Assembly (NCBI GenBank): GCA_029259945.1
Contig: JAJDEF010000037.1
Span: 122,169 to 186,168 of the forward strand
DNA length: 64,000 nucleotides
Direction: 5' to 3'
Source: Planctomycetota bacterium
GTDB taxonomy: Bacteria; Planctomycetota; Planctomycetia; Pirellulales; Lacipirellulaceae
Numbering within the stretch: the stretch's first letter is position 1; each line of letters begins with the position of its first letter. A program made the translations under genes and the position numbers. The notes under the pieces were generated by a model. That model was not told the DNA's origin. It worked only from the letters and a program-made list of their open reading frames with translations, and ran no database searches. Positions 14,259-24,365 of this stretch are shown here, one piece after another.

Positions 14259-16391
14259 TTACGAAGCGGTGTCGGCAGTTTTGCTGTCGGAGGGTTCTTC
14301 TTCGCCTAGCTCTTGCATCGCCACTTTGCGGCTCAGCTTAACGCGATCTTGCTCGTCGACGGCGATGACTTTCACTTTCATCTCGTCGCCTACCGAGCAA
14401 ATGTCGCTGACGCTGCCGACATATTCGTTCGACAGCTCGCTGATGTGGCATAGGCCGTCTCGTCCTGGCAGGATTTCGACGAAGGCACCAAAGTCTTTCA
14501 CGCTGGTGACGGTGCCGTCGTATATCTTGCCAACTTGGACGCTTGCGGTCAGGGCATCGACGCGAGCCAAGCCCGCCTCGGCACACTCTTGGTCGGCCGC
14601 AGCGACGGTCACGGTGCCGTCTTCTTGAACATCGATCGTGCAGCCCACTTCCTCCTGAATGCTGCGGATCATCTTGCCACCAGGGCCGATCAACAGACCA
14701 ATCTTCTCGGGATTGATCTTGGTGCGAAGCAGTCGCGGTGCGCTTTCCGAAGTCGTATCGCGTGGCCGTGGGATGGCGGTCAACATGCTACGCAAAATTT
14801 CCAACCGTGCTTCCTTCGACTGGGCAAGGGTCGCTCGAATAATTTCTTCGCTGATGCCGTTGATCTTAAGATCGAGCTGGATGCCGGTGATCCCGTTTTG
14901 GGTGCCGGCGATCTTAAAGTCCATGTCGCCGAAGTGGTCTTCGTTGCCAATGATGTCGGTCAACAAGGTCCAATCGTCGCCCTCTTTGACCAAACCGACC
15001 GAAATACCGGCAACCGGATTGGTGATCGGTACGCCAGCCGCCATCAGGCCGAGGGTTGCGCCACAGACGCTTGCCATCGAGCTGGAGCCGTTCGACTCGA
15101 GGATATCGGAAATCACACGAATGGTGTAAGGGAACGTATCATGATCGGGCAGAACTGGGTTGACGCTTCGCTCGGCCAAGGCTCCGTGACCAATCTCGCG
15201 ACGTCCTGGGCCTCGAATCGGTCGGCACTCGCCCACCGAGAACGAAGGGAAGTTGTAATCGAGCATGAATCGCTTGGAGTACTCGTCAAACAACCCGTCG
15301 ACACGTTGCTCGTCGCGGCCGGTGCCTAGGCAAACGGTAATGAGTGCCTGGGTTTCGCCACGTTGGAACAAGGACGAACCATGGACGCGAGGCAAAAGAT
15401 CGACTTCGCAATGGATGTCTCGCAATTCGTTGCTAGTACGGCCATCGGAACGCACCCCGGCGAGAATCTGCTCGCGAAGCACTTTTTCTTCGAGGTCGTG
15501 CCAAGCTTTGCGGAACGAGCTGACGGTATAAGCACCTTCGGCCTCTTCGTCGGGGATCAAATCTTCTTGCGCTTGCGTGCGTAAAACTTTGACCGCATCG
15601 TCTTTGGCGTGCTTGCCTTCGGTCTTGTAGGCCTCTTTGAATTGCGACTCGAAACGCTCGACGACAATATCAAACAAGCCATCGGACACGGGCGGAGTGA
15701 CTTCGATCTTGGGAGTGCCGACCTTGTCGATCAACTCTTGCTGGAGATCGCAGACTTCGCAGATGACTTTGTGGGCTTCCATGATGGCTTGGGCCATCTC
15801 GTCTTCGGGCATCTCGCGAGAGAACCCTTCGATCATCAACACCGCTTCTTTGGTGCCCGAGACAATAAGGTCGAGAGTGCTGACCTCAAGATCGTCTTGC
15901 GTGGGGAAGGCAATAAACTTGCCGTCGACGCAGCCCATGCGAACCGAAGCGAGAGGGCCCAGGAACGGCAGCGGTGAAATTCCTAGTGCGGCACAGGCAC
16001 CGTTCATGGCCAACACGTCGGCATCGGTCTGCTTGTCGCTGGCCATCACAAAGTTCTGAATCTGAACTTCGTCGTTGAAGCCCGGAGCGAACATGGGACG
16101 AATGGGACGATCGATCAGGCGAGCGGTGAGCGTCTCTTTGGTGGTCGGACGCCCTTCTCGCTTGAGAAATCCACCTGGGAACTTACCCGCGGCAGCAGTT
16201 CGCTCGCGGTAGTCACACATCAGGGGGAAAAAGTCGATGCCCGGTCGAGGGCTTCCAGTAGCGACCGCACTAAGAACCGTGGTGTCGCCGTATTGTACGA
16301 GGCAGGAGCCTGCCGCTTGTTTTGCCAGTGTGCCCGTCTCGATGGAGAAGAGGGCATTTCCGATTTTTCTTTCTACGCGAATTTTTTTCAC
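14259..16391 (-). CDS. pnp: Polyribonucleotide nucleotidyltransferase (PNPase)
   Basis: DFFPLMCDYRE, FLKREGRP, RREIGHG, ESNGSSSMASVC, GDMDFK motifs, then KH and S1 domains; follows rpsO. Confidence 0.98.
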   Translation of the reverse strand: MKKIRVERKIGNALFSIETGTLAKQAAGSCLVQYGDTTVLSAVATGSPRPGIDFFPLMCDYRERTAAAGKFPGGFLKREGRPTTKETLTARLIDRPIRPMFAPGFNDEVQIQNFVMASDKQTDADVLAMNGACAALGISPLPFLGPLASVRMGCVDGKFIAFPTQDDLEVSTLDLIVSGTKEAVLMIEGFSREMPEDEMAQAIMEAHKVICEVCDLQQELIDKVGTPKIEVTPPVSDGLFDIVVERFESQFKEAYKTEGKHAKDDAVKVLRTQAQEDLIPDEEAEGAYTVSSFRKAWHDLEEKVLREQILAGVRSDGRTSNELRDIHCEVDLLPRVHGSSLFQRGETQALITVCLGTGRDEQRVDGLFDEYSKRFMLDYNFPSFSVGECRPIRGPGRREIGHGALAERSVNPVLPDHDTFPYTIRVISDILESNGSSSMASVCGATLGLMAAGVPITNPVAGISVGLVKEGDDWTLLTDIIGNEDHFGDMDFKIAGTQNGITGIQLDLKINGISEEIIRATLAQSKEARLEILRSMLTAIPRPRDTTSESAPRLLRTKINPEKIGLLIGPGGKMIRSIQEEVGCTIDVQEDGTVTVAAADQECAEAGLARVDALTASVQVGKIYDGTVTSVKDFGAFVEILPGRDGLCHISELSNEYVGSVSDICSVGDEMKVKVIAVDEQDRVKLSRKVAMQELGEEEPSDSKTADTAS

Positions 16392-16655
16392 TTTTCCGAT
16401 TCCTACATTGGGTTAGAAGTCGTAACGACCGAGAAGACAGCGGTTGCAACAACGCAACCAAATTCTACTGCCACTTAGAAAACAAGGGCCACTCGAAGCA
16501 TGACGATGCACCGAGAGCGGGATGTTTTCGACTCGCCTAGAGATATGGCTCGTCATGGCAAGCGAAACACGCTTGACGATGAAAATTTGCAAGCGAGCAA
16601 GAGAACCGACGTCCGCTTGCAATCTTTCGAGGGCGAAGCGACCGGCGCAACGTTG

Positions 16656-16925
16656 CTACTTGCGGATTTCCAAACGACGCAACAGATCGAGATACAGCTG
16701 AGGGCTCTTGCGTTTCACATAATCCAAAAGACGTCGGCGCCGACTAACCATACGCAACAAACCGCGTCGGCTCGAAAAATCTTTCTTGTGAGTCTGCAAA
16801 TGGCCGGTCATCTCGGCAATGCGAGTGGTCAGGATCGAAATCTGGACTTCTGGCGACCCCGTGTCTTTGGCATCGCGTCCGAACTCACCAACCAATTCTT
16901 GCTTACGTTCTTTTGTGACCGACAT
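16656..16925 (-). CDS. rpsO: 30S ribosomal protein S15
   Basis: [33 protein letters not shown]. Confidence 0.98.
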
Positions 16926-17244
16926 TATTTCCCGCTTCTGTACTGATCGCTTGCATGTCTGGGACGGTTGAGACTGGACGCATGCCGAACGGGCAAACGA
17001 GAATCTCGGTGAGCTTCACTCCGTGACCAGCTGCTACGACTCTTCCTACAAAACTAACAGTGTTTACGATTAACTACGAACCCTCCAATTTAGCAATCTA
17101 TTGGTGCTCCGCAACCGCAATTGGGGGCTTCAGGAAGCTCATAGAGTCCCTTCGGCCATCCCGATCGCAGAAAATCGGGGCTTTTGCTACTAATAACCGC
17201 ATAACCCCCATTGTGGTAACCCGTTAGCAGCTATCCAGGTACCT

Positions 17245-17663
17245 GTAGGGAACGCCCTCTGTGGCGTTCCGCCGTGTACCGTTCACCTGTTGGTCTATAC
17301 ACAAGTGTGCGTGTTGGCTCTTCCGGCCCAACGGGCCAGGCCTATGTCAGCCCAGGGTGTAGCAAATAGGAGCGAAAGTGACTATTTGCGTAACCCTGGG
17401 TAACCAACCAATCCGAGGCCAAACCCCCAAGGGGTGATCCTAACAGCGAGACGCTAGGGCCACCCTTTCAGGGTTTTGTTGGATGGTATCATCGAACCCA
17501 GGGTTGCGACCGCCTGCGGCGGACTCCACCCTGGGCTGATTTAGGATCTCCCCTTCGGGGTTGAGACGCCAACGGCGTCGGATCATCTAACGAAATGTCA
17601 TGAGCAACTCGTGTATAAAGGGTGTACCGTTCAAACGGAACGGCACGGAGGCACGTTCCCTAC
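17245..17663. repeat. Inverted pair of GTAG-type REP sequences (17245-17271 and 17636-17663)
   Basis: GTAGGGAACGCCCTCTGTGGCGTTCCG ... CGGAACGGCACGGAGGCACGTTCCCTAC; both also sit next to GTGTACCGTTCA. Confidence 0.7.
17325..17560. repeat. Composite CCCAGGG/CCCTGGG palindromic repeat nested inside the REP pair
   Basis: GGCCCAACGGGCC, AGCCCAGGG...CCCTGGG twice, CCCCAAGGGG, CCCTTTCAGGG and CCCCTTCGGGG hairpins. Confidence 0.65.
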
Positions 17664-17683
17664 ACAGGTAAGGGGACAGGCTC

Positions 17684-17806
17684 TTAGTGGCCCTCTCGTC
17701 GCCGGAAAGTCGACATCTCGATCCCCTGCCCGCCCGCGCCAAACCGTGGCGGATGCAGTACCTCGATTTCGATCTCTGGATTAGCGGTTCGTAGTCGGTC
17801 ATGCAT
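17684..17806 (-). pseudogene. comEC: Remnant of a comEC 3' end with an internal deletion
   Basis: Translates as MHDRLRTANPEIEIEVLHPPRFGAGG-QGIEMSTFRRREGH*, versus ComEC MNDRLRTANPDIEIEVLHPPRFGVGG...QRGIEMSTFRQVDH*. The first 78 bp carry 11 differences, 8 of them synonymous. Confidence 0.8.
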
Positions 17807-17895
17807 CTCAAAAGCTGCAGCTATAGGCCATTACACACTAAATCGCTAATTTTCCAGCCAGATTACGGAGTTCAGCCTTTTCACGGGCTTTTTAT

Positions 17896-17924
17896 TTGAC
17901 AGCAAGTCGCTTACTCGGTACAGT
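17896..17924 (+). promoter_or_regulatory. Sigma70-type promoter
   Basis: TTGACA-N17-TACAGT with an AT-rich upstream element. Confidence 0.55.
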
Positions 17925-17927
17925 CAA

Positions 17928-18083
17928 GACAGTTACGAGCTTTTAGCAACGTTACTAAACACAAGAGATACGAACCACTGCAAGACGTTAACAAAGGGAT
18001 CTTTCTTCAACTTGATTGAGGGGGATCCCTTTTTTTGTTGCTCAAGCAGCGTTGCCTCTTGGTTGTCTCTTGCGTTCGCTGTC
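17928..18083 (+). ncRNA. Candidate structured RNA or leader (rod-like hairpin containing a terminator-like stem)
   Basis: Nested pairings GACAG/CTGTC, CAAGAGA/TCTCTTG, AACCA/TGGTT, GCAA/TTGC, AAAGGGATC/GATCCCTTT, with a T7 run at 18030-18036; begins just after the promoter. Confidence 0.35.
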
Positions 18084-18196
18084 GGAAATTAGGTGATGTG
18101 ATGCAGAATCGAAAAACAAAGCCGAAATCGTCCCTGTCAGGACTAACTAACCAGATGTCACCTGCTTAGATAACTCGTAATAACAAGGTTGCCATC

Positions 18197-18841
18197 ATGA
18201 ATCAACGATTTTTCTTTTTGAATTTAACGGCCGTCGCGATTCTTGCCGCAACGGCTACGGTTGCGTCTGCCCAGCAGACGGTTACGTTTGTAGAAAACAT
18301 AGCGGATCCCGCCCTTGCAGGCCTTGGTGCTGGTGGTTACGTCGATATTTTCTACACCCAGTCTCCAGGCGCTGAGTACCTCAACCACGATCTCATTGTC
18401 AATCCAACGGCAGGAGGCATCTTGGATCCAATTCGTGGGGTCGGGGGCGGACAGGCTGATGGGACGGGGACTGCGGTAGATACCTGGTCACACACGGTCT
18501 TTGAGTTGTTTGTACCCAACAGTAGCTCTTATGTGTTTACCACCTATGATCCGGTTGGGAGTTTCCCAACTTTCATAGGCGATCCTCTCCCGGCGACATC
18601 TTTGAATTGGTCTGTCTTTGACACTAATAAGCTCGACACCGATGTGCTGGCTCCCTACCATCTGGCGAGAGTTTTGTACTCAGCGGGTGGCGTCGGTACG
18701 ATTGATTTCCAGGTGTTTGACACGGTAACGGTTAGTACGGGTGGCGAGTTGTTCTCGACCATTTACCGGGCCCCCGAACCTACCACCCTCGCACTGGCCG
18801 CTATGGGGCTCTGCGGCTTACTGACCCGTCGACGCAGGTGA
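18197..18841 (+). CDS. PEP-CTERM sorting-domain surface protein, copy 1
   Basis: Signal peptide (…VASAQ); C-terminal APEPTTLALAAMGLCGLLTRRRR. Confidence 0.9.
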   Translation: MNQRFFFLNLTAVAILAATATVASAQQTVTFVENIADPALAGLGAGGYVDIFYTQSPGAEYLNHDLIVNPTAGGILDPIRGVGGGQADGTGTAVDTWSHTVFELFVPNSSSYVFTTYDPVGSFPTFIGDPLPATSLNWSVFDTNKLDTDVLAPYHLARVLYSAGGVGTIDFQVFDTVTVSTGGELFSTIYRAPEPTTLALAAMGLCGLLTRRRR

Positions 18842-18906
18842 ATTTTCTAGTACGGTGAAAACCAGATGTCACCTGTTTGATGACTCGTAATAACAAGGAC
18901 GCCATT

Positions 18907-19551
18907 ATGAACCAACGATTTTTCTTTTTGAATTTAACGGCCGTCGCGATTCTTGCCGCAACGGCTATGGTTGCGTCTGCCCAACAGACGGTTACGTTTG
19001 TAGAAAACACGTCCGATCCCGCCCTTGCAGGCCTTGGAGCTGGTGGTTACGTCGATGTTTTCTACACTCCAAGCCCTGGAGCTGAATACTTCAACCACGA
19101 TCTCATTGTCAATGCAACGGTAGGTGGCATTCTGGATCCAATTCGGGGGAGTGGGGGCGGACAAGCTGATTCTACAACGTCTACGGTAGATACCTGGACA
19201 CACACCATCAATGAGATATTTGTGCCTAACAGTAGCTCTTATGTGTTTACCACCTATAATCCGGTTGGTAGTTTCCCAACTTTTGTGGGCGATCCACTCC
19301 CGGCACCAGCTTTAAATTGGACGGTCTTTGACACGAACAGTTGTGACTGTGACATTATTGGTCCCTACCATCTAGCGAGAGTTTTGTACTCAGCGGGTGG
19401 TCAAGGCACGATTGACTTCCTGGTAATTGACCAAGCAACGGTTACTGCGGGTGGCGAGTTGTTCTCGACCCCTTACGGGGTCCCCGAGCCTACCACCCTC
19501 GCACTGGCCGCTATGGGCCTCTGCGGCTTGCTGACCCGCCGACGCAGGTGA
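18907..19551 (+). CDS. PEP-CTERM sorting-domain surface protein, copy 2 (tandem paralog)
   Basis: 214 aa, 176/214 identical to copy 1 by manual alignment; VPEP tail; upstream CCAGATGTCACCTG...CTCGTAATAACAAGG also duplicated. Confidence 0.9.
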   Translation: MNQRFFFLNLTAVAILAATAMVASAQQTVTFVENTSDPALAGLGAGGYVDVFYTPSPGAEYFNHDLIVNATVGGILDPIRGSGGGQADSTTSTVDTWTHTINEIFVPNSSSYVFTTYNPVGSFPTFVGDPLPAPALNWTVFDTNSCDCDIIGPYHLARVLYSAGGQGTIDFLVIDQATVTAGGELFSTPYGVPEPTTLALAAMGLCGLLTRRRR

Positions 19552-19586
19552 ATTTTCCAGGGTGAAAAGACAAAGACCTTGAACGA

Positions 19587-22115
19587 CTAGTGGTCGACCT
19601 GTCGGAAGGTGGACATTTCAATCCCGCGCTGATCTAGCACAAAAACGGCAGCTCCGCAGTCGGCTGTGTGCAGAACCTCTGCTCCGACCGCTTGGTACGA
19701 GACCGTAGTCACTCGTTGGTCGGCGGCCTGATGTCGACCGCTAACGACCACCCACCCGGGCGTACACCAAGCAGCAAAGCCGGGCGGGTCGCTATGGCGG
19801 CTACCATGATGGGGTGCCAGCAAAATATCGCAGTGCAGAGGAGGTTCGGCAACCACCGCCTCGATGCCAGGGGATTCAAGATCGCCGGGGAGCAAGATCG
19901 AATGCCCTGCATAACGCACGTAAAGCAGAATGCTGTTGGCGTTGTCACGCCCTCCCACACCAAATCGCGGCGGGTGCAGTACCTCGATTTCGATATCAGG
20001 ATTAGCGGTGCGCAGTCGGTCATTCATCCAGACTTCACGCAACGGGATGTCGGCGTCTTCGAGCGTCGTGCGTAAAAACTCGGGGGCGTCTAACTTGCCT
20101 GCGGTCGCCCAAGGGTCGAACATCAACGGCGAAACATAGACCACCCCGATATCAAACCGATCGAGCAAGCCAGGCACGGCGTTGTAGTGATCGACATCAG
20201 CATGCGAAAGCACAATGGCATCGATACGGGTAATGCCACGAGACCAAAGAAAGGTGGCTATTGTGTCGCTGGTCACTTCGGGCGAAACGAGGCTGCCTGC
20301 ATCGTAAAGAATGGTCTGATTGCCGGGCAGTTCGAGCACGACACACGTACCGTGGCCGACGGCAAGAAACGTGCAGCGTAGTTGATCGTCTTGCCGCGAG
20401 ACTTCGCCCGCCGCTAAGCCCACGGTAATCCAAAGAGCGGCCAGCGAGGCAGCCGTTTTCCAGCCGGTTCGCAGGGTCGGAACCAAAGCAAACAGCGCCA
20501 TCGCACCATAAAAAACCAACAGCCACCAAACCGCCGGGCCAGCAAGATACGCTCGGCTGACATCAACTTGCTCGGCGAACGAGACAATCGTCCGCGTTGC
20601 GCTGAGGCTAAAGGCGCAGATCACTCCCAGCAACGTGGCGACCGGTGGCAAAATCCAGCCGACGGTACAAATTGCCAAGCCTGTGGTCAGCACCACCGCG
20701 ACAAGCGGCCATAGGATCGGGGTAATGAGAATGCTGATAGGCGTGGTGATATGAAAATGATGAGCCACCAACGGCGCGACGACTAACCAAAGAACAAACG
20801 AAGCCGCCGCCAGATGGCCAAAGCTATTCGCTGCCCAACGTAGTGCTTGGTGAAACCAGGTTTCACGGCTACGTATCAAACGAAGGAGTGGGTCCGGCGG
20901 TTTTTTTGATTGGGTGATGCAGTATCCATATCCGGCCAAAGCGGCGACGCAGAGGAAACTGAGCTGCGTCCCGCCGCGAAACAGCTCGCTGGGGTTGTAA
21001 ATAAGCACTCCTATCGCAGCCGTCGCCAGCAGGGTCTGCATCTTGGCACGACGAGTGGTCAACAACGAGAAAAGCGCGAAGACAATGAGAATGGCTGCTC
21101 GTACCACCGGCGGACGCCCTCCGACGACCAAAGCGTAAGCAATCACAAGGCTCGCGGCGATAACGATTGCCAGTCTCTGCGACAACCACCCGCCACGTAA
21201 GATCAACCAGACGACGCCCGCCAACAACCCGATATGCAAACCCGAAACCACCAACAAATGGATGGTGCCGGTCTTAAAGAACGATTCTTTTGTGTCTTGG
21301 CGAAGGTGCTCTCGTTGACCAAGCAAAATCGCCATCGCAAGGTCGCTTTGTTCGACGCCCACATAACGGGAAAGCTGCGTTGCACATTGATTCACCGCTT
21401 TGTTGAGCCAACGCCCCGCCGGCGCAGTTGCCGCAGGCTGAAGAATGGTCACACACTCGGGGGCCAGACTGAAAAGCGCACAATGTCGCCCCACGCCACG
21501 TTCTATTTGTGCCCAATCGTATTGACCTGGGTTCATCGCTGGGCGCGGTCGAGAAAGATGCGCAAAAACCCGAAGTCGATCGCCGGCAGTGATGCCGGTG
21601 AGTACACCAGCAACGCGTAGCCGACAGTCGCCGGTGGCAGTACGCCATTGCGTCCCGTCGCGAACTCTTACGATGCGAACTTCGACCTCGCTTCGTGGGC
21701 GAGCCGGCATTGCTCGTAAGGGGTTGTTCGGGGCCGCCGGGCTCTGCTTGGTGCGAGCAACCGCAATGGCCTCGATGCAGACGGGCCGGGAAACCTCGCT
21801 GGCAAATCGCGTCAGACTGTCGTTGGTCGTATAGTTCCACTGAAGATGATGCCACGCGCCGGCAAGCGCAAGAACTGCCAGCAAAAGAAGGTATGCCGAA
21901 CGACAACCGGCGCCTCGACGGCACATTAGCGTACAAGCAATCACCAAGGCTGCAGAGGCTGCCCACCAAAACAGGTGCCCACCGATCGCGTCTGCCAAAC
22001 CATAGCGATCGGCAACAATGCCTGTAGCCGCAGCAAGAGCCACCCAGAGTATTGGGTGTCTTGAAGGGGTCGAAACGTCAACTTGAGGTGGCAAGTGGGA
22101 CACCGATGCTCTCAA
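19587..22115 (-). CDS. comEC: ComEC/Rec2 DNA-uptake channel with C-terminal metallo-beta-lactamase domain
   Basis: NPGQYD, TGTIHLLVVSGLHIG, RPPVVRA, QLSFL, LAVGHG, SHADVDH, APHHGS motifs; many TM helices. Confidence 0.9.
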   Translation of the reverse strand: MRASVSHLPPQVDVSTPSRHPILWVALAAATGIVADRYGLADAIGGHLFWWAASAALVIACTLMCRRGAGCRSAYLLLLAVLALAGAWHHLQWNYTTNDSLTRFASEVSRPVCIEAIAVARTKQSPAAPNNPLRAMPARPRSEVEVRIVRVRDGTQWRTATGDCRLRVAGVLTGITAGDRLRVFAHLSRPRPAMNPGQYDWAQIERGVGRHCALFSLAPECVTILQPAATAPAGRWLNKAVNQCATQLSRYVGVEQSDLAMAILLGQREHLRQDTKESFFKTGTIHLLVVSGLHIGLLAGVVWLILRGGWLSQRLAIVIAASLVIAYALVVGGRPPVVRAAILIVFALFSLLTTRRAKMQTLLATAAIGVLIYNPSELFRGGTQLSFLCVAALAGYGYCITQSKKPPDPLLRLIRSRETWFHQALRWAANSFGHLAAASFVLWLVVAPLVAHHFHITTPISILITPILWPLVAVVLTTGLAICTVGWILPPVATLLGVICAFSLSATRTIVSFAEQVDVSRAYLAGPAVWWLLVFYGAMALFALVPTLRTGWKTAASLAALWITVGLAAGEVSRQDDQLRCTFLAVGHGTCVVLELPGNQTILYDAGSLVSPEVTSDTIATFLWSRGITRIDAIVLSHADVDHYNAVPGLLDRFDIGVVYVSPLMFDPWATAGKLDAPEFLRTTLEDADIPLREVWMNDRLRTANPDIEIEVLHPPRFGVGGRDNANSILLYVRYAGHSILLPGDLESPGIEAVVAEPPLHCDILLAPHHGSRHSDPPGFAAWCTPGWVVVSGRHQAADQRVTTVSYQAVGAEVLHTADCGAAVFVLDQRGIEMSTFRQVDH

Positions 22116-22244
22116 GAAATGGACAAGGCGGTTGCCCCGGCATTCTAACCCCTGAAGGAAAAAATTTCAGCTATCACGCTTGAAGCATTGGAAGACACCG
22201 GGGACAATGTGCCTTTTCCCCAAGACCCCTACGAGATTTTCGCA

Positions 22245-24365
22245 ATGGAAATGCCTGTATCCCGCCTTCTACCCTCTGGACTCCTCCTGCTGGTCGCGAT
22301 CGTTTTTCTGGTCAGTACAAGCTGCCAGAGTGATCTGCCGGTGACCACGCCCTCGTCCCAGGACGAACCCGTGCTAATCCCACGAAGTATCTTATTCGGC
22401 AATCCGCAACGGGCCTCGGCACGGTTAAGCCCGAATGGCAAGTGGCTCAGTTTTTTGGCGCCGGTCAACGGCATTCTGAATATCTGGGTCGGCCCGTTCG
22501 ACGACTTCACGAAAGCAAAACCAGTCACTAATGAAAAAATCCGTGATATTCGCAGCCACCACTGGGCCTACACGGGTGAGCATGTTCTCTACAGCCAAGA
22601 TAAGGCCGGCAACGAGAACTGGCATGTTTATGCCACGAATGTTGTCACTGGAGAAACCAAAGACCTTACGCCACTCGAAAAAGTGCGCGCCGAAATCGAA
22701 GGCCTCAGTCATAAGTTCCCTGACGAGATCCTCGTGGGACTCAACGATCGCGACCCTCGCCTGCACGACATCTACCGAGTCAACCTCCGCGCAGGCGAAC
22801 GCGAATTGGTACAGATCAATCACGGCGTCGCGGGCTATGTGACGGATGATGATTTCCGTGTGCGCTTTGCGATGAATTACACCCCCGAGGGTGGCAAAGT
22901 TTTATTGAAACCAAAAACTGAAAGCGAAACGGGCGAAGGAGCCGAGTGGGAAGACTTCGTCCGCGTAGGGACCGAAGACGTGATGACGACCGGGCCTGCC
23001 GGTTTTGATAAATCGGGCAACGTGCTATATCTCGAAGATAGTCGCGATCGTGATACGGGGGCGCTGATGGCCGTCGATCTCAGCACGGGTAAGTCGACTC
23101 TAGTCGCCGAAGATCCACGAGCCGATGTGGGCAGTGTGATTTCGCACCCGACTGAAAAAACCATCCAGGCCGTCAGTTTTACCTATTCTCGACGCGAATG
23201 GACTATTCTCGACGAGTCGATTCGCCCCGACCTCGAATACTTGGCCACCCTGGAAGATGGCGAAATCATCATCACCAGCCGAACGCTCGACGATTCGCAG
23301 TGGACCGTGGCCTATGTGCTCGACGATGGGCCGGTCAAGTTTTATCGGTACGATCACACGGCCCGCAAAGCCCACTATTTGTTTAGCAGCCGCGACGAAC
23401 TCGAAAACTACCCATTGGTCAAGATGCATACTCCAGTGATCAAGAGCCGCGACGGCCTGAACTTGGTTTCTTACCTCTCGCTGCCTGCCGAGAGTGATGC
23501 CGACGGGGATGGGCGTCCCGACGCCCCTTTGCCGATGGTGTTGGATGTTCACGGCGGACCCTGGTCGCGCGATGGTTGGGGGTACAACTCGTCCCACCAG
23601 TGGCTGGCAAACCGTGGTTACGCCGTACTCAGCGTGAATTTTCGCGGGTCGACCGGGTTTGGTAAAAACTTTTCGAATGCTGCCGCCGGCGAATGGTCGG
23701 GCAAGATGCACGACGACCTGCTCGATGCCGTGGATTGGGCCGTCGAAAACGGCATCGCGCGGCGAGACAAGGTAGCCATCATGGGTGGCAGCTATGGCGG
23801 TTATGCCACGCTGGTTGGGCTGACGTTTACGCCCGATGTTTTTGCCTGCGGCGTCGACATTGTGGGCCCCTCGAGTTTGGTCACACTGCTAAAAAACGTG
23901 CCGCCCTACTGGATTCCCTTCATGCCGGTGATGAAGCACCGCGTCGGCGACGTCGATACCGAAGAAGGCCGCGCCGAACTAGAGAAGAAATCACCGCTCA
24001 ACTATGTCGACAAAATCACACGACCTTTGCTGATTGGCCAAGGTGCGAACGATCCGCGCGTGACCCAACTCGAAGCCGATCAGATTGTCGAAGCAATGAC
24101 CTCGAAGAATATCCCGGTCACTTATGTTCTCTATCCCGACGAGGGGCACGGCTTTTCGGGAGAGCATAATCGCATGTCGTTTAAGGCCGTGGTCGAAGCA
24201 TTCTTAGCCCAAAACTTGGAGGGACGTTATCAGCCCGTTGGCAACGATTTCGACGAGTCGAGCATTCTTGTCCCCGTCGGTGCTGCCAATGTGCCCGGCG
24301 TCGACGAAGCCTTGTCAGCCGAGCAAAAGCAGATGCCGGCGGAGTCAAAAGAAGATCAGCCGTAA
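22245..24365 (+). CDS. S9 family serine peptidase (prolyl oligopeptidase / dipeptidyl aminopeptidase), probable lipoprotein
   Basis: VSTSC lipobox-like; VHGGPW, NFRGSTGFG, GGSYGG (catalytic Ser), NDPRV (Asp), EGHG (His). Confidence 0.92.
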   Translation: MEMPVSRLLPSGLLLLVAIVFLVSTSCQSDLPVTTPSSQDEPVLIPRSILFGNPQRASARLSPNGKWLSFLAPVNGILNIWVGPFDDFTKAKPVTNEKIRDIRSHHWAYTGEHVLYSQDKAGNENWHVYATNVVTGETKDLTPLEKVRAEIEGLSHKFPDEILVGLNDRDPRLHDIYRVNLRAGERELVQINHGVAGYVTDDDFRVRFAMNYTPEGGKVLLKPKTESETGEGAEWEDFVRVGTEDVMTTGPAGFDKSGNVLYLEDSRDRDTGALMAVDLSTGKSTLVAEDPRADVGSVISHPTEKTIQAVSFTYSRREWTILDESIRPDLEYLATLEDGEIIITSRTLDDSQWTVAYVLDDGPVKFYRYDHTARKAHYLFSSRDELENYPLVKMHTPVIKSRDGLNLVSYLSLPAESDADGDGRPDAPLPMVLDVHGGPWSRDGWGYNSSHQWLANRGYAVLSVNFRGSTGFGKNFSNAAAGEWSGKMHDDLLDAVDWAVENGIARRDKVAIMGGSYGGYATLVGLTFTPDVFACGVDIVGPSSLVTLLKNVPPYWIPFMPVMKHRVGDVDTEEGRAELEKKSPLNYVDKITRPLLIGQGANDPRVTQLEADQIVEAMTSKNIPVTYVLYPDEGHGFSGEHNRMSFKAVVEAFLAQNLEGRYQPVGNDFDESSILVPVGAANVPGVDEALSAEQKQMPAESKEDQP

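Follow-up and report, generated by a model that had tools for sequence, protein, structure and literature searches.

The 64-kb window analysed here (the whole stretch of 64,000 nucleotides from contig JAJDEF010000037.1, of a planctomycete assigned to the Lacipirellulaceae) contains an intact gene of the comEC/Rec2 type and, 2221 bp downstream of the matching part of that gene and in the same orientation, a remnant of another comEC 3′ end. A pair of genes for PEP-CTERM proteins, PEP1 and PEP2, lies between the two copies. Along the minus strand the order of the locus is comEC, a 35-nt spacer (the distance from the PEP2 stop codon to the comEC stop codon), PEP2, PEP1, their leader, the remnant, a 19-nt spacer, a cluster resembling repetitive extragenic palindromic (REP) elements, 115 nt of unique DNA, the rpsO leader, rpsO and pnp. 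The features most relevant to the origin of this arrangement are listed below.

19587..22115, minus strand: comEC/Rec2, intact, 842 aa, from the list of open reading frames (ORFs); DUF4131, Competence and metallo-beta-lactamase domains
19587-20027, minus strand: last 441 nt of comEC, the resident counterpart of the remnant
18907..19551, plus strand: PEP2, tandem paralogue of PEP1 (PF07589, 28.9 bits, cut-off 20.7)
18197..18841, plus strand: PEP1, convergent with comEC; secreted protein of 214 aa carrying a PEP-CTERM sorting signal (PF07589, 25.2 bits, cut-off 20.7)
17807..18196, plus strand: joint 17807/17808 and leader of the PEP pair, 390 nt, 44% GC; comEC homology ends at 17807
17729..17806, minus strand: remnant piece A, homologue of comEC codons 685-710 (window 19950-20027), 26 codons long (MHDRLRTANPEIEIEVLHPPRFGAGG)
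17684..17728, minus strand: remnant junction codon CAG, piece B, a 5-codon tail and TAA, placed by gapped alignment

An intact comEC and a remnant of a second 3′ end

The resident comEC is full length, aligns end to end with its orthologues (127 loci) and its frame is not interrupted. The three-domain ComEC/Rec2 architecture is contained in a single uninterrupted ORF, and all three domains score above their Pfam cut-offs (PF13567, 50.5 bits; PF03772, 170.9 bits; PF00753, 50.7 bits).

In the remnant (17684-17806, minus strand), two pieces of the comEC C-terminus are fused in frame over 40 codons. Piece A forms a direct repeat with the gene (17728-17807 and 19949-20028, 86% identity over 80 nt in the repeat search), for which the blastn E value of 1.9e-22 rules out chance similarity. 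Piece B reads GIEMSTFR and has 19 of 24 bases in common with the gene (17702-17725 and 19602-19625); the tails that follow have diverged up to the stop codons, ending in RRREGH in the remnant and in RQVDH in the gene. Between the two pieces 324 nt of comEC (19626-19949) are represented in the remnant by the codon CAG, a net in-frame loss of 321 nt. This is the structure described in a first-pass annotation made from the letters alone, which had reported an in-frame fusion with about 320 bp deleted, in the orientation of comEC and with a stop codon of its own. The remnant ORF is open from ATG to TAA, its ATG being homologous to Met685 of comEC and not a new start. Homology to comEC begins sharply at 17807/20028 and runs to the stop codons, and the two copies have unrelated DNA on their downstream sides. 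A displaced 3′ fragment lying downstream in the same orientation, with the intact gene retained, is the configuration of 3′-end displacement.

Read support was obtained from contigs built independently from four biofilm metagenome runs of one study. A 699-nt Logan contig spans 17534-18232, thereby joining the end of the REP-like cluster, the remnant and the PEP1 leader, and it shows no differences from the window in four of four runs. Its depths in these runs (5.6, 10.1, 5.1 and 9.9) are comparable with those of the comEC contig (4.8, 9.8, 6.4 and 8.3). Contig breaks are confined to the PEP1/PEP2 repeats and to the interior of the REP-like cluster, and no alternative joint at the remnant or at the comEC end was found in the four runs, down to 80% likeness and a 5% share. 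An assembly chimera, which the earlier annotation had raised as a possible undoing of its proposal, is ruled out by one contig that crosses the remnant and both flanks without differences in all four runs at single-copy depth. The remnant is real and fixed in the population.

Divergence of the two ends and probable recombination between lineages

The first 78 nt, that is piece A, hold eight synonymous and three non-synonymous differences by the Nei-Gojobori method, exactly the 8 of 11 counted at first sight, which gives 0.55 substitutions per synonymous site (dS) and 0.054 per non-synonymous site (dN). In piece B all five differences are synonymous and none is non-synonymous. Taken over the 34 alignable codons of both pieces, 13 synonymous and three non-synonymous differences are distributed on 26.2 synonymous and 75.8 non-synonymous sites (dS 0.81, dN 0.04), and dN/dS between the remnant and comEC is about 0.05. 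Such values are those of two ends that come from different alleles, each evolved under selection.

Duplication of the gene in situ, with a neutral remnant beside a selected gene, predicts that 39-41% of the differences are synonymous, and the probability of finding at least 13 of 16 is then about 0.001; if both copies had been neutral it is 5e-6. In-situ duplication followed by neutral decay is rejected on this synonymous excess (P about 0.001). Given 13 synonymous against three non-synonymous differences, nearly all of the divergence therefore arose while both copies encoded a working ComEC, as the first-pass annotation had proposed. The substitution pattern indicates that the two copies diverged as working comEC genes, each in a lineage of its own, and were brought together in one genome only recently, and since both evolved as functional comEC, DNA of a diverged lineage must have recombined at this locus. 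Inactivation of the remnant is also recent, because three non-synonymous changes over 76 sites allow no more than a few per cent of neutral change.

The arrangement is probably the product of one fairly recent recombination, leading to displacement of the 3′ end, in which two diverged lineages belonging to a single Lacipirellulaceae-like clade took part. The two lineages would have carried different contents in the comEC-rpsO interval. One end of the incoming DNA would have been joined by homologous recombination in a conserved flanking gene, and the other by illegitimate joining at 17807/17808, which falls within the reading frame of comEC (codon 685). The expected product is a full-length comEC with the 3′ end of one lineage, then PEP2-PEP1, then the 5′-truncated comEC 3′ end of the other lineage. 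We lean toward the polarity in which the imported block was anchored in comEC and consisted of a new comEC 3′ end, PEP2, PEP1 and the leader; the displaced copy would then have lost 321 nt in frame, its decay having only begun. Neither a dedicated mobile element nor a recombinase would be required; the process would amount to homology-facilitated illegitimate recombination, and Campbell-type homologous insertion of a circular fragment would be an equivalent route.

The comEC-rpsO interval in relatives and the PEP-CTERM pair

The interval in which the PEP pair and the remnant lie is bounded by genes that are conserved in relatives.

22188-24365: S9 peptidase gene, upstream of comEC and divergent from it
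16926..17125, minus strand: conserved rpsO leader, 83% identical to locus L046 over 198 nt and 88% identical to L081 over 125 nt
16656-16925, minus strand: rpsO, downstream anchor together with pnp (tblastn synteny in 41 loci)
14259-16391, minus strand: pnp, conserved downstream anchor of the variable interval (tblastn synteny in the same 41 loci)

Searches with ComEC returned 80 genome loci and 47 metagenome loci, and two more were obtained from a database of 5.8 billion proteins. The closest ComEC relatives are from Lacipirellulaceae/Bythopirellula-like metagenome-assembled genomes with 70-73% aa identity; no closer one was found in the genome contigs, the metagenome contigs, the 5.8-billion protein database or the exact-protein look-ups. 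The gene order S9 peptidase, comEC, rpsO, pnp is kept across Pirellulales, and in 41 loci the distance between comEC and rpsO varies from 121 bp to 9.5 kb; in 14 of them it is 121-673 bp and contains no gene. The variability of cargo that the first-pass annotation had suggested looking for is thus present, and by comparison of these loci comEC-rpsO is a variable site between conserved anchors in Pirellulales. In the window, the rpsO leader is the first DNA downstream of the remnant with homology to relatives, and homology to L046 and L081 upstream of rpsO stops at about 17125.

A fatty-acid desaturase gene follows comEC on its 3′ side in about 45 loci, including the closest three (L046, L081 and L128). 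It is absent throughout the 64-kb window (window 16926-19586 compared with L046 12497-14276), a point that was overlooked in the earlier annotation. No desaturase orthologue of at least 80% identity was found in the source runs X2 and X4, a threshold too strict for a claim of absence. In L128 (8168-15459), the closest relative by the metallo-beta-lactamase domain (73%), the comEC-rpsO gap measures 7.8 kb and holds the desaturase, three unrelated PEP-CTERM proteins of 275, 460 and 530 aa, the last being a DUF7453 protein, and a prepilin-like protein. From the contents of this gap, the comEC-rpsO interval seems to collect exosortase substrates.

PEP1 and PEP2 both have the PEP motif, hydrophobic helix and basic tail of PEP-CTERM/exosortase substrates, with scores above the Pfam cut-off. 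They are 82% identical at the aa level (dS 0.34, dN 0.12). Their family comprises 11 proteins in the 5.8-billion protein database. Homologues with 76-78% identity occur in two other organisms (L130 and L131) as a tandem pair beside thrS-infC-rpmI-rplT-pheST, and a second array of the family (P0123/P0124) is present in the source metagenome at the same depth as the window; P0123 and P0124 have no record in the protein look-ups. A PEP1 homologue lies beside comEC in 0 of 131 loci, and the GTDB representative genomes yielded none either; the PEP pair is on this count derived at the comEC locus. If PEP1 and PEP2 had been duplicated after the insertion, about 13 non-synonymous changes would be predicted in the remnant, of which three are seen; they were therefore a pair already at the time of the event, moved or already present as a unit. 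The cargo, judged from these homologues, belongs to a chromosomal paralogue family and not to a recognisable mobile element, and it is not clearly foreign. The foreign origin assigned to it in the first-pass annotation is not clearly supported, given a second array of the same family at the same depth in the same metagenome.

That annotation had further proposed that foreign DNA displaced the old 3′ end of comEC. Recombination with a diverged lineage and a PEP pair derived at this locus are in agreement with the proposal; the polarity that it assumes is not shown, the opposite one fitting equally well, and an insertion that restores the comEC frame has only partial support. Comparison of the three aa differences and of the tail with 16 relatives, along the lines suggested there, does not discriminate the native copy. 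At the three aa differences, one position is N in the relatives as in the resident gene, one is E (in L046 and L081) as in the remnant, and the third is mixed.

With the polarity reversed, comEC-PEP2-PEP1 would be native and the remnant would have come with DNA of a relative, consisting of a partial comEC 3′ end, a short spacer and rpsO/pnp. Recombination would have been homologous in rpsO/pnp and illegitimate at 17807/17808, and would have replaced the DNA between the PEP1 leader and rpsO, possibly including the desaturase. The missing desaturase would be accounted for in one step, and rpsO and pnp, the most conserved of the nearby genes (90-92% aa identity to L046), would be good anchors. 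The duplication of PEP1/PEP2 (dS 0.34) is moreover much older than the inactivation of the remnant, and the adjacency of comEC and the PEP genes may be old. Import of the remnant with rpsO-proximal DNA fits the data as well as import of the PEP block does, and nothing speaks directly against it; the lack of relatives with PEP1-like genes beside comEC is compatible with either polarity. We regard this mirror image as possible, if on the whole unlikely.

Several points weigh against import of the PEP block with a new comEC 3′ end. The donor is not in hand, which leaves microhomology at the joint and the position of the homologous crossover hypothetical; the mechanism of recombination, the polarity, and the order in which the deletion and the desaturase loss took place are likewise inferred. 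A second comEC 3′ end that could represent the donor was not found in the same metagenomes at 80% likeness. The three aa differences do not decide the polarity. Loss of the desaturase would require an extra event, and recombination is expected to be inefficient between sequences that are only about 86% identical. Of its own downstream DNA the new 3′ end keeps no more than about 15 nt before sequence derived from PEP2 takes over, a limit tighter than is usual for a random illegitimate joint and one that would fit a compact element having its surrogate 3′ end built in.

The two PEP genes are 88% identical at the nt level over the leader and the first 300 nt (18166-18465 and 18876-19175) and diverge in mid-gene. 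Both encode a signal peptide of the 'AQQTV' type, and the arrays beside thrS in other organisms (L130 6898-10543, L131 7009-8651) pair an 'AQQTV' type with an 'AGS' type. In L130 a unit of about 24 nt (GCCAACTAATCCCTGACAGTCTTT) is repeated five times in tandem just upstream of the PEP homologue. In the leader of the window, the promoter scan gave a promoter-like TTGACA-17-TACAGT at 17896-17924 (plus strand) upstream of PEP1, and the terminator scan gave a GC hairpin with a T-run at about 17995-18040, some 70 nt after the promoter-like site; the unit 17896-18040 could be a candidate small RNA of about 110 nt or a PEP leader. A 67-nt segment of it (17969-18035) recurs between the paralogues of the second PEP array, with joints 19523 to 17969 and 18035 to 18205 in other contigs.

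Comparison with known systems and with a second comEC duplicate

In Escherichia coli K-12 the e14 prophage in icd supplies an alternative 3′ end to the gene, and the original end persists as the 5′-truncated pseudogene icdC with mostly synonymous or conservative changes (PMC13626634). The window resembles this case in that the gene is intact through an alternative 3′ end and the old end is a 5′-truncated pseudogene beyond the insert. Unlike the window, however, e14 has an integrase and a defined attachment (att) core and excises, whereas the insert described here measures 1.8 kb, carries two PEP-CTERM genes of chromosomal type and has no recombinase and no evident boundary core. No integrase, transposase or excisionase was found in 17807-19586, where PEP1 and PEP2 are the only genes (the absence of an integrase had been noted correctly from the start), nor among the checked ORFs with 220 aa or more in the surrounding 15 kb or so, the larger of which encode glycogen phosphorylase, MTHFR, a Ser/Thr kinase, a DUF885 protein, a glycosyltransferase, a porin-like protein, PriA and histidine kinases.

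The locus could still be what is left of an e14/icd-like site-specific element that carried a surrogate comEC 3′ end, integrated at codon 685 and afterwards lost the integrase and most of the cargo. The architecture is that of e14 between icd and icdC (PMC13626634), with the gene completed by insert-proximal DNA and the displaced end at the far junction; the surrogate end does not reach beyond about 15 nt past the stop codon, and the differences are mostly synonymous. We consider such an origin quite improbable. Apart from the missing mobility genes, no identical core is evident at the boundary: the edge is GATG, one mismatch and 10 identical nt, and the longest exact match, of 20 nt, is found 34 nt into the repeat, although short cores are possible. 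The insertion point is not reused either, as the one other comEC 3′ duplicate found begins at a PHHGS motif, some 100 codons farther downstream, and the cargo is drawn from a chromosomal paralogue family.

Displacement of the C-terminal part (the 3′ end of the gene) by homology-facilitated illegitimate recombination is proposed for arrays of Rhs, contact-dependent inhibition (CDI) and type VI secretion system (T6SS) effector-immunity genes (PMC5361080, citing Jackson et al. 2009, de Vries & Wackernagel 2002 and Prudhomme et al. 2002). As in the recombination between lineages favoured here, a conserved 5′ part serves as anchor, the other end is illegitimate, and without an integrase the old 3′ end comes to lie downstream, its orientation unchanged. 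These systems differ from the window in that they exchange variable toxin tips under diversifying selection and accumulate orphan arrays; in the window the displaced part belongs to a conserved, housekeeping-type domain under purifying selection, there is one orphan, and the novelty consists of the genes carried along and not of the gene tip.

Reported insertions in competence genes, among them the comK prophage, AbaR in comM and a genomic island in comEC of Streptococcus pneumoniae, disrupt the gene (PMC12378983). They have in common with the window a locus of the competence family, but they carry their own recombinases, whereas comEC of the window is complete and accompanied by no mobility gene. 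The parallel drawn in the first-pass annotation with elements that target competence genes does not hold up: comEC is intact with its three domains, no recombinase is present, and the second case described below differs in the codon at which the duplicate starts and involves a joint to an IS1 sequence. Integration hot spots between core genes also resemble the locus, with a different cargo in each lineage between conserved flanks; exchange by flanking homology normally leaves no scar at such sites, in contrast to the window, whose remnant marks an imprecise end. The arrangement is a known kind of scar, an example of the 3′-end displacement pattern, and represents neither a new kind of mobile element nor a new attack on competence.

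A second case, an independent parallel to the recombination favoured for the window, was found by comparing the last 750 nt of each comEC with its own downstream DNA. Direct 3′ duplicates were detected in two further loci only, L094 and L095, which are mutual closest relatives with 75% ComEC identity (duplicate regions L094 11029-11500 and L095 11026-11793). The screen returned duplicates for 2 of 113 comEC, 0 of 30 pnp and 0 of 34 S9 peptidase genes, counts too few to establish specificity for comEC. The L094 and L095 remnants begin at the PHHGS motif, about 100 codons downstream of the start of the window remnant, and lie 281 nt and 604 nt beyond the comEC stop codon, with a small ORF on the opposite strand between the copies. 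In L095 the copies differ by 13 synonymous and two non-synonymous changes (P = 4e-4). The comEC stop codon of L095 is directly followed by the C-terminal 55-60 codons of an IS1-family transposase, of which L094 retains only the last 30 nt or so; as the restored comEC end is fused to the middle of the transposase gene, this is an illegitimate joint and not an att site. Each of the two remnants is most like the comEC of its own genome, though the neighbouring junction is common to both, which suggests later gene conversion or (repeated) allelic replacement.

This second case bears on a modified in-situ origin of the window remnant, in which the 3′ region of comEC was first duplicated in part, for example through Campbell-type re-insertion or by unequal exchange, and later either the functional copy gave way to an allele from a diverged strain or patchy gene conversion took place. 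L094 and L095, with a shared junction and remnants that match their own comEC, indicate that such structures may persist and be refreshed by conversion or replacement. For the window, however, this history would need two or more events where one suffices, its plain form is rejected by the synonymous excess and no duplicated downstream flank is seen, which leaves it highly improbable.

A broader proposal would regard the 3′ part of comEC as a recurrent landing zone, where Pirellulales capture genes without an integrase by anchoring the incoming DNA in comEC or in rpsO/pnp and joining the other end illegitimately, with an intact ComEC always restored by selection. We consider this unlikely. If it were true, the remnants of the window and of L094/L095 would be direct genomic evidence of homology-facilitated illegitimate recombination, and an indirect pointer to DNA uptake and to a selected ComEC function in the phylum. 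To our knowledge, natural transformation has not been demonstrated in planctomycetes. Independently of this proposal, the locus offers an unusually clear scar of a recent DNA exchange between diverged planctomycete lineages at a core-gene locus, its structure points to selection keeping comEC intact in this organism, and the comEC-rpsO interval may be viewed as a variable site that collects genes for PEP-CTERM surface proteins.

Nineteen nt past the stop codon of the remnant begins a cluster of nested hairpins (17240-17664, no strand assigned) that resembles REP elements or bacterial interspersed mosaic elements (BIME). Its predicted RNA fold has an energy of -223.8 kcal/mol (z = -7.8) and no Rfam match, nor did any known RNA family in Rfam match within 16000-22500. 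The cluster is multi-copy in the source metagenome, as seen from its doubled depth and from loose ends at 17240, 17253, 17635 and 17664, and some of the metagenome copies are without 17272-17636. Its terminal hairpin (GGAACGCC-N6-GGCGTTCC) recurs several times in two distant Pirellulales loci, L043 and L072.

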